DNA from: Escherichia phage vB_EQ1
DNA: 64,000 nt
Direction: 5' to 3' (one strand)
Sequence record: PQ516281
In this document: piece by piece, positions 50,811-52,260 of the stretch
Position numbering within the stretch: position 1 is the stretch's first letter
How the letters are laid out: every line of letters starts with the position of its first letter
Made by a program: the position numbers and the translations under genes
Notes under the pieces: model-generated
What the model was told of the DNA's origin: nothing
The model's input: only the letters and a program-made list of their open reading frames with translations
The model's database searches: none

Positions 50811-51359
50811 TTAACGAGCCCATTTGATGATTTCTGTAATCAAATCATTACGTTCGCTTGCATTAAATCCTATAACTTTGTTAGCACCATCATGATTAAG
50901 TAATTGATACGTTTGGATTTTGTTATGAATTGCAAACTCTTCAAAATGTGAAATGACTGTATTAAAACCGAATGAAGACAAAGTAATAAGGTCGTCTTCA
51001 AAACTTTCAGTCATTTCGTTACGTGTTAAAATAATTGTGAACACATCATGGTTTTGGCAAAGACGAATATAATCCTGTTCATAAACGTCAAGAACCGAAT
51101 CCGCATCTTGTCGAATACGTCCATAAACCCAGTTACTAATATATCCACGGTCTAACAGATAAATCTTAGTAGGGTCTAAATAATTCAACATCGTTTCGAA
51201 ACAGCCAACTTCATTTCGAGACTTAACATCGAAACGTCCATCAACTGTTCGTTTAGGGAAATCAATCTTTACATATCTTTCACTAATTTCCATTATGTCA
51301 TTAATGAAAGTTGTTTTACCAGCATTATCTGGGCCATCTACTAAAATAATTTTAGCCAT
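50811..51359 (-). CDS. P-loop kinase-like protein (Walker A GPDNAGKTT)
   Basis: 182 aa MAKIILVDGPDNAGKTTFINDIME...; sits where T4 has beta-gt; first gene after the modification cluster. Confidence 0.55.
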   Translation of the reverse strand: MAKIILVDGPDNAGKTTFINDIMEISERYVKIDFPKRTVDGRFDVKSRNEVGCFETMLNYLDPTKIYLLDRGYISNWVYGRIRQDADSVLDVYEQDYIRLCQNHDVFTIILTRNEMTESFEDDLITLSSFGFNTVISHFEEFAIHNKIQTYQLLNHDGANKVIGFNASERNDLITEIIKWAR

Positions 51360-51360
51360 T

Positions 51361-52260
51361 TTATTCCTCGATTACGACATCTTCGTATTTAGGTATATTA
51401 TACGGCGAAGAAATTAAAGCGTTAAAGTAGATGAACTCACCAAGACCTGGATGGAATACTTCTTCAGGATTTTCGAAATATTGAATCTTCGGACGTCCTT
51501 TAAGAATTTGATAGTACTCAGTTTTAGTTGGATTAAAAATTCGAATCAGCGCTTCTTCAGGATACTTATTTCTGTCGAAACTATTATTTGGATCAGTTAT
51601 ATAAAGCGGTTGACCTAATTGAATTGCGCATTCAACAACTTGTTCAAAACGATAGCATGGGTCACTAATTCGAAATGGATGAAAAATACCATCTAGATGA
51701 ATAGGAGCCAAATCACCTACAAGACGCTGCATGACGGAAGGACGTATAACTTTCTGCGTTACGATAATCTTATTACCATCTGCACCTGCGTTAACCAGCA
51801 CTTCTTTTTGACGTTCATTCAACACAGTAGTTTGAAGTGAACGATTAACCGACAACATGTCGGTTTTTAAGAATTCGTCAATATAAAAACGTGGTTTATT
51901 AGGGTCTGCAGTGATATTGAAATTGAATTCTACGTCAAAAGCGCCATCATATCCAGTGATATCTGTGATTAGAAAATCACAATCATAATAAGCAATTAAT
52001 GAATCAACCACAAATTCATTTTCAGACCAGAAATATTTACGAGTGTTATACGCGTTATCTTTATACCATAATGGAACAAACTTAAATTCTGGGAAAAGAC
52101 GTTCACATTCTTTAATATCAGATGCATTACGTGGATATGTAATCACATCGCCTGGATTAGCACGGTGCAAATGAAGTTGGAAGTTGCCATCCTTAAGGAT
52201 AGCATACTGTCCAGTTTCATAAGACCGCATACTCAAAATAGGTACGCGGAAAATAGCCAT
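51361..52260 (-). CDS. hypothetical protein (modification cluster member)
   Basis: ORF track 299 aa; 1-nt gaps to both neighbours. Confidence 0.6.
   Translation of the reverse strand: MAIFRVPILSMRSYETGQYAILKDGNFQLHLHRANPGDVITYPRNASDIKECERLFPEFKFVPLWYKDNAYNTRKYFWSENEFVVDSLIAYYDCDFLITDITGYDGAFDVEFNFNITADPNKPRFYIDEFLKTDMLSVNRSLQTTVLNERQKEVLVNAGADGNKIIVTQKVIRPSVMQRLVGDLAPIHLDGIFHPFRISDPCYRFEQVVECAIQLGQPLYITDPNNSFDRNKYPEEALIRIFNPTKTEYYQILKGRPKIQYFENPEEVFHPGLGEFIYFNALISSPYNIPKYEDVVIEE

Follow-up and report, generated by a model that had tools for sequence, protein, structure and literature searches.

The DNA of RB69 carries beta-D-Araf-(1,3)-alpha-D-Araf ether-linked to C5 of cytosine, without a methylene group (PMC13326640), and NMR and MS place the sugar linkage at O5 (PMC13326640). 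Older literature named the RB69 base arabinosyl-hmC (PMC6024577); the hmC assignment was termed erroneous in later papers. Experiments with RB69 gp48 identified it as a synthase of 5-hydroxy-dCMP that depends on flavin and O2, and hm-dCMP is not its product (Lee et al., NAR 2026, PMC13326640). The D169N substitution is diagnostic of this activity (PMC13326640). RB69 gp159, the T4 gp1 homolog, converts 5hodCMP to the diphosphate (PMC13326640) and UDP-arabinose is reported to be made by the AfhE/AfhF-type enzymes of phage HY126 (PMC13326640). Lee et al. (NAR 2026, PMC13326640) used fold searches to assign the names 'nucleotide kinase' to RB69p045 and 'arabinosyltransferase 1' to RB69p046:47.

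The gene pair described here was located in Escherichia phage vB_EQ1 (PQ516281), in a window of 64,000 nucleotides. The pair was already listed by Lee et al., so the finding is real but is a rediscovery of described genes, which are already known as part of the arabinosyl-5-hydroxycytosine cluster. With a probability of roughly 55%, the two genes encode the kinase and the first glycosyltransferase of arabinosyl-5-hydroxycytosine hypermodification in RB69-like (Mosigvirus) phages, acting in the order set out below. Arabinosyl-5-hydroxycytosine is a defence against restriction enzymes, some CRISPR systems and the glycosylase Brig1 for a large set of T4-like phages that matter in therapy. Public records still name these genes 'hypothetical protein', 'thymidylate kinase' and 'dCMP hydroxymethylase', and correct annotation therefore matters.

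Gene pair, adjoining synthase and sugar supply

The initial annotation described a 182-aa and a 299-aa ORF at 50811-52260, and both are present as described, on the minus strand. In the ORF list the pair is flanked by uvsX (49540-50712) and by a thymidylate-synthase homolog. The three contiguous genes are:

50811-51359, minus strand: 182-aa P-loop kinase of the thymidylate-kinase fold, ortholog of RB69 gp45 (RB69p045), 'nucleotide kinase'
51361-52260, minus strand: 299-aa compact GT-B (GT4-like) predicted glycosyltransferase, ortholog of RB69 gp46:47; putative first (alpha) arabinosyltransferase onto 5-hydroxycytosine
52260-52976, minus strand: 238-aa thymidylate-synthase homolog, 5-hydroxy-dCMP synthase (RB69 gp48) by identity, PDB match and D169N

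The synthase stop and the transferase start overlap as TAATG. The 299-aa ORF ends with GAGGAATAA, followed by one base and the kinase ATG, and a GAGGA Shine-Dalgarno sequence is present at this junction. The kinase begins with MAKIILVDGPDNAGKTT and has its Walker A motif at residues 9-17. The packing of the synthase, transferase and kinase genes is that of translational coupling. Both the 182-aa and the 299-aa ORF are genuine genes. Alignments contained 32 invariant columns across 48 transferase homologs and 19 across 37 kinase homologs, and AlphaFold2 models of the 299-aa and 182-aa proteins had pLDDT values of 95.1 and 88.1, respectively. A 2.8-kb stretch spanning the pair was 100% identical in Escherichia phage MRostami-2023e and 98-98.5% identical in many RB69-like phages (genus Mosigvirus). 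A scan for promoters and terminators returned no more sites than were found in shuffled sequence.

The pair had been placed at the position of the T4 beta-glucosyltransferase gene. The T4 gene order is uvsX-segA-beta-gt-42-imm-43; the interval from uvsX to 42 is filled by segA and beta-gt, and the positional remark is thus correct. The upstream neighbour had been called '42', a name that holds as a fold-level match and fails on sequence, the protein being 25% identical to T4 gp42 and 100% identical to RB69 gp48. PDB entries 9iqc/9ir2/9iqu matched it at E 4.5e-162 with about 98% identity. Asn occupies the position of E. coli ThyA D169 (MRSQN, versus MRSND in T4 gp42), as part of a D169N + N177D signature. 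Assignment as a T4 gp42-type dCMP hydroxymethylase was rejected on this Asn in place of Asp and on the identity to RB69 gp48. As the synthase is identical to RB69 gp48, the base is 5-hydroxycytosine and not hmC. The proposal that the kinase acts on hm-dCMP was ruled out, since the adjoining synthase is RB69 gp48 with its D169N signature and makes 5-hydroxy-dCMP.

A second, ordinary thymidylate-synthase-like ORF with a weak synthase-profile match (E 4e-7) was found at 2600-3460 on the minus strand and is presumably the phage td gene. In metagenomic phages, flavodoxin_2 / NADPH-dependent FMN reductase genes were found one to two genes from D169N synthase homologs:

L004:4739-5293: reductase gene directly upstream of the synthase
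L006:1182-1706: reductase gene two genes upstream
L008:7068-7613: reductase gene directly after a kinase fusion

These positions are consistent with the reported flavin dependence of the 5hodCMP synthase. The cluster of this phage itself contains no flavodoxin_2/FMN reductase gene.

Upstream of the synthase, in one operon-like run with it, lie five further genes with RB69 counterparts, and an additional transferase gene is located about 21 kb from the main cluster:

53018-53257, minus strand: 79-aa protein (RB69 gp49); phrog_8601 at 5.5e-50 and RB69 synteny; absent from JS98
53254-54414, minus strand: 386-aa divergent peptidase-U32-family protein (RB69 gp50); PF01136 at 7.3e-11 and a faint UbiU match
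54472-54873, minus strand: 133-aa HAD-type phosphatase (RB69 gp51, AfhF-like); phrog_1238, synteny and analogy to HY126 AfhF (PMC13326640)
54858-56543, minus strand: 561-aa bifunctional sugar-1-phosphate nucleotidyltransferase and kinase (RB69 gp52:53, AfhE-like); synteny (PMC13326640)
56725-57360, minus strand: 211-aa arabinose-5-phosphate isomerase (RB69 gp55); KpsF/GutQ at 2.7e-32 and KdsD at 1.2e-30 (NCBIfam), RB69 annotation
29441-30541, minus strand: 366-aa second DNA arabinosyltransferase (RB69 gp3 type); PDB 9iqz/9ir0 at E 6.3e-251

The 561-aa protein matched Pfam NTP_transferase at 8.8e-10 and gave weak APH-type kinase matches. By analogy to HY126 AfhE and AfhF, the isomerase, the HAD phosphatase and the 561-aa nucleotidyltransferase-kinase would be the source of UDP-arabinofuranose. 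A sugar-kinase role, also suggested for the 182-aa protein, is already covered by the 561-aa enzyme. The 366-aa enzyme hardly differs from 9iqz, the structure solved for 'phage HY126 glycosyltransferase'.

Hydroxylases that work without O2, namely RlhA, TrhP and UbiU/V, are among the members of the U32 family; the phage 5hodCMP synthase, in contrast, needs O2. Fewer phage records contain the U32-family gene (221) than the kinase and transferase genes (343-348). The U32-family gene is absent from E. coli phage JS98 and was not found in the 57 Acinetobacter phages with transferase and kinase, the host of which is strictly aerobic. Even the Thanatos-2 protein, from a Shewanella phage, has at least 82% identity; the transferase of the sister phage Thanatos-1 is only 47% identical. 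A published table labels RB69 gp50 'sugar or heterocycle reductase', and the name 'gp50' does not occur in the text of that paper. The U32-family protein may provide an anaerobic route to 5-hydroxycytosine.

Classification of the transferase and the kinase

The 299-aa protein was matched by phrog_3891 at 1.1e-155. The corresponding gene of RB69 (NC_004928, 24597-25497; L002:3598-4498) showed 20 differences in about 900 nt, of which 19 were substitutions and one an indel (about 98% DNA identity). The indel is an extra T at codon 182, which splits the RB69 gene into RB69p046 and RB69p047. The ORF is intact in this phage, and 340 of the 348 matching phage records gave a query coverage of at least 80%, in agreement with the published statement that the RB69 gp46/gp47 split is a sequencing error (PMC13326640). 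As judged from sequence, the protein is a member of the RB69 gp46:47 orthologous group, encoded directly downstream of the 5hodCMP synthase.

Structure searches with the predicted model assigned the GT-B fold, with two Rossmann-like domains and an inter-domain cleft. The top structural neighbours were sucrose-phosphate synthase (6kih), BshA and PimA, all ranked above T4 alpha-GT. No match was obtained in Pfam, NCBIfam or PDB sequence searches, including those with the 48-sequence profile. The protein falls outside Pfam Glycos_transf_1 and Glyco_trans_4 and has no canonical EX7E motif; the region around the invariant residues H270-P-G272 and E275 is possibly a degenerate form of this motif. On its modelled fold, the 299-aa protein is a predicted glycosyltransferase. 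The initial annotation had considered it as a possible second transferase: the glycosyltransferase class is retained from the fold, and the order is revised, the protein being proposed here as the first, base-proximal enzyme with the second encoded at 29441-30541. Homology to T4 beta-gt was ruled out, as no profile similarity was found, and homology to the second transferase of the phage itself was ruled out at BLAST level.

The 182-aa kinase is 98.9% identical over 182/182 residues to the product of RB69 24050-24595 (RB69p045, labelled 'thymidylate kinase' in the record), which also adjoins uvsX. It belongs to phrog_761 at 1.9e-45. By identity and position, it is assigned to the RB69 gp45 orthologous group, phrog_761. 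The thymidylate-kinase fold was recovered in a structure search with the predicted model, in support of the earlier reading of this Walker-A protein as an NMP/dNMP-type kinase. The P-loop G9-P-D-N-A-G14-K15-T-T and the pair D70-R71 are invariant in the 37 kinase homologs and agree with the GxxxxGK[ST] and DR[YHF] patterns. Nothing above threshold, and no PF02223 match, was obtained for the protein in Pfam/NCBIfam; TIGR00041 scored 16.4 bits against a cutoff of 83. Sub-threshold PF02223 matches were present in 8 of 18 kinase relatives (best E 2.9e-5), and PDB sequence and profile searches gave matches at the level of the P-loop only, with thymidylate kinases at E 0.007-0.1. As the protein lies below every Pfam/NCBIfam threshold, the kinase class is based on fold and motifs, and the protein is a predicted P-loop kinase of the NMP/dNMP-kinase type. 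Profile and structure searches had been proposed as the check on both proteins; the profile searches gave no Pfam or NCBIfam match above threshold and the structure searches gave TMK-like and GT-B folds.

When 1.84 billion cluster representatives were searched exhaustively with the profile, just 56 kinase relatives were returned at E <= 1e-10, so the family is small and specialised. PF18748 (HMUDK_HMUD1) matched none of 18 family members. The 5-hmdU DNA kinase M6 gp54 itself matched PF18748 at 7.7e-18; against the kinase profile, 33 P-loop residues of M6 gp54 aligned and nothing else. The 182-aa kinase was therefore excluded from the 5-hmdU DNA kinases.

Some distant relatives (E 1e-11 to 1e-31; 314-357 aa) consist of the kinase domain and a C-terminal MBD4-like DNA glycosylase domain. 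The fusions comprise proteins P0266, P0268 and P0269 and six others, the former at:

L008:6001-7074: kinase-glycosylase fusion
L009:1446-2390: kinase-glycosylase fusion
L010:127-1092: kinase-glycosylase fusion

The glycosylase domain matched MBD4 in the PDB at E 2e-9 and has a conserved G-x-G-K-Y-x-x-D-S motif. The L008 and L009 fusions lie directly downstream of D169N-type 5hodCMP synthase homologs, and the gene next to the L010 fusion encodes a remote homolog of the 299-aa transferase. The fused mismatch glycosylase could remove deaminated 5-hydroxycytosine (5-hydroxyuracil opposite G).

Occurrence and synteny in other phages

The 299-aa transferase was found by tblastn in 348 phage records and the 182-aa kinase in 343, with an almost equal breakdown by genus (transferase/kinase: Escherichia 176/176, Acinetobacter 57/57, Klebsiella 26/25). 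T4 was not among the phage records listed for either protein. Phage HY126 (He et al. 2026) and Bas46/47 (Mahler et al. 2025) have presumed orthologs, to which functions were probably assigned by experiment in those two studies.

Synteny was compared across nine loci: this phage, RB69, Shewanella phage Thanatos, five metagenomic phages and JS98. The metagenomic phages include contigs of 355 kb and 122 kb, the latter not T4-like, and their kinases are 25-32% identical. In profile searches, synthase homolog, transferase and kinase were contiguous in this order in eight of the nine loci, sometimes with a homing-endonuclease-like gene inserted within the trio. Such endonuclease-like genes, with faint Phage_T4_End_IV and weak NUMOD3 matches, were found at L005:3214-3873, L007:3277-3930 and L006:4097-5011. 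In T4 the homing endonuclease gene segA occupies the same interval as these insertions. The ninth locus, that of JS98 (Dhakavirus; L014, NC_010105, 22069-26243), has the order HAD-kinase-synthase-transferase-uvsX with 4-nt overlaps, and its module is without the U32 gene and the 79-aa gene. From this permuted order, transferase-kinase coupling is not universal, although the trio is still contiguous.

The galactose-using Rhizobium phage RL38J1 carries the same trio as gp214-216 (Table 1, PMC13326640); its kinase and transferase were out of reach of tblastn at E 1e-3. Presence of the trio in a galactose-using phage links the kinase with the base branch of the pathway and not with arabinose synthesis. 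The synthase, transferase and kinase genes act like a single transferable unit that produces 5-hydroxycytosine and decorates it.

Proposed pathway and comparison with known systems

In the preferred pathway, the kinase and transferase genes and the 5-hydroxy-dCMP synthase gene that precedes them would share one early transcript. The synthase would hydroxylate dCMP at C5, an activity known from the identical RB69 protein. The 182-aa kinase would then use ATP to convert 5-hydroxy-dCMP to the diphosphate, as the module's own kinase alongside the T4-type gp1. After replication, the 299-aa transferase would move arabinofuranose from UDP-Araf to the 5-hydroxyl of cytosine in DNA, and the retaining chemistry usual in GT4 would give an alpha-linked, base-proximal sugar. 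The isomerase, phosphatase and nucleotidyltransferase-kinase, whose genes lie directly upstream, would supply UDP-Araf, and the second arabinose would be added by the gp3-type transferase.

Two published results bear on the order of these steps. As gp159 already phosphorylates 5hodCMP, there would seem to be no need for another kinase at this step. When DLP3 transferases, the gp79 ortholog among them, were purified and assayed singly, 5hoC DNA was not arabinosylated with either UDP-Araf or UDP-Arap (PMC13326640), and Lee et al. state that either the mononucleotide or DNA could be the acceptor of the first sugar (PMC13326640). Given the gp159 activity and the inactive DLP3 ortholog, glycosylation before replication is kept as a serious rival, although it is judged unlikely. 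The 299-aa enzyme would in that case glycosylate free 5-hydroxy-dCMP, the dedicated kinase would act on the arabinosyl-dNMP, and the polymerase would use a pre-glycosylated dCTP analogue; the kinase would be needed because a gp1-type dNMP kinase would reject the bulky arabinosyl-5-hydroxy-dCMP. This would explain the constant company of an NMP-type kinase with the synthase and first transferase across very different lineages, including the trio of RL38J1 (PMC13326640), when unglycosylated 5hodCMP is already handled by gp1. It would also fit the inactivity of the transferase ortholog on 5hoC DNA in vitro and the nearest structural neighbours, which use small acceptors and outscore T4 alpha-GT. 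Against it, expression of gp48 with gp1 puts sugar-free 5hodC into plasmid DNA (PMC13326640), and T-even and thymidine-hypermodifying phages have been reported to add sugar or amino-acid groups on DNA after replication. The negative result in vitro may reflect a missing partner or unsuitable conditions, and structural ranking is weak evidence on the type of acceptor. To our knowledge, glycosylation is post-replicative in every DNA-glycosylating phage studied so far, and the pre-replicative order, if true, would be a departure from this.

It is improbable that the 182-aa enzyme is a DNA kinase, phosphorylating the hydroxyl of the modified base or of its sugar in the polymer as 5-hmdU DNA kinases do. 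Those enzymes are also small (M6 gp54, 187 aa), likewise give weak Thymidylate_kin and dNK Pfam matches, and pair with helix-hairpin-helix DNA-glycosylase-like transferases (PMC8989533). Distant relatives of the 182-aa kinase, next to D169N synthases, are fused to the MBD4-like domain, a DNA-binding, base-flipping domain, but this domain could simply repair deaminated 5-hydroxycytosine. The lack of any HMUDK_HMUD1 match in the family and the P-loop-only alignment of M6 gp54 argue against this role. The final modification is phosphate-free and its ether oxygen is the 5-hydroxyl oxygen, so that phosphorylating the 5-hydroxyl would have no obvious chemical use.

A role of the 299-aa protein in activating the sugar, as a UDP-pentose pyrophosphorylase and not a transferase, is very improbable. 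It was considered on account of the Thanatos ortholog TH1_063 (L001:4995-5897), which is 47.5% identical and has the same position after a synthase homolog; TH1_063 was reported to convert UTP and xylose-1-phosphate to UDP-xylose in vitro (PMC12838424). The GT-B fold of the 299-aa protein is not a nucleotidyltransferase fold and conflicts with that assignment. In the passages describing this assay a no-enzyme reaction is the sole named control (PMC12838424), so that a co-purified E. coli uridylyltransferase was apparently not excluded, and the acceptors described as tested are unmodified cytosine compounds and not 5-hydroxy forms (PMC12838424). A true sugar-1-phosphate nucleotidyltransferase domain is moreover already present in the 561-aa protein, the HY126 homolog of which is reported to make UDP-arabinose (PMC13326640).

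Hardly any credence is left for a T4-like hmC phage, with the kinase acting on hm-dCMP or a sugar and the 299-aa protein replacing beta-glucosyltransferase on hmC DNA: the location between uvsX and a gene-42-like gene and the older name arabinosyl-hmC (PMC6024577) favour it, but the gene-42-like protein is identical to a proven 5hodCMP synthase with D169N, and the hmC part is refuted by published chemistry, in which NMR and MS show the sugar attached via O5 without a methylene group and the hmC assignment is later termed erroneous.

The answer to why a 5-hydroxycytosine module is never without a thymidylate-kinase-like kinase of its own would settle at which stage, pre- or post-replicative, the first sugar is attached, and is relevant to the enzymatic production of glycosylated DNA.

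Among known systems, the T4 beta- and alpha-glucosyltransferases add glucose to hydroxymethylcytosine, whereas arabinofuranose would here be added to 5-hydroxycytosine; T4 beta-glucosyltransferase has no detectable sequence relationship to the 299-aa protein. The GT4-family GT-B enzymes 6kih, BshA, PimA and MshA are 340-400 aa in length, compared with 299 here, at 7-12% identity. Such enzymes are normally retaining, and the proposed acceptor of the 299-aa enzyme is a nucleobase hydroxyl. The fold of the 182-aa kinase is that of thymidylate kinase (PF02223; PDB 5x7j, vaccinia 2v54), and both have a GxDxxGKTT P-loop (Asp third), an FP-basic motif after strand 2 and DRxxxSxxxY. Identity to thymidylate kinases is about 13-19%, below the Pfam threshold. 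Unlike these, the 182-aa kinase has an invariant F-x-D-D-x-I and Asn in place of the P-loop Arg of type-I enzymes, and its family is confined to phages making 5-hydroxycytosine. The 5-hmdU DNA kinase (PF18748) is also a small phage P-loop kinase beside a hypermodification pathway based on a thymidylate-synthase homolog. RB69 gp45 and gp46:47 share with the present pair the gene order and the top structural matches (6kih and thymidylate kinases), and the RB69 transferase gene differs essentially only by its extra T.
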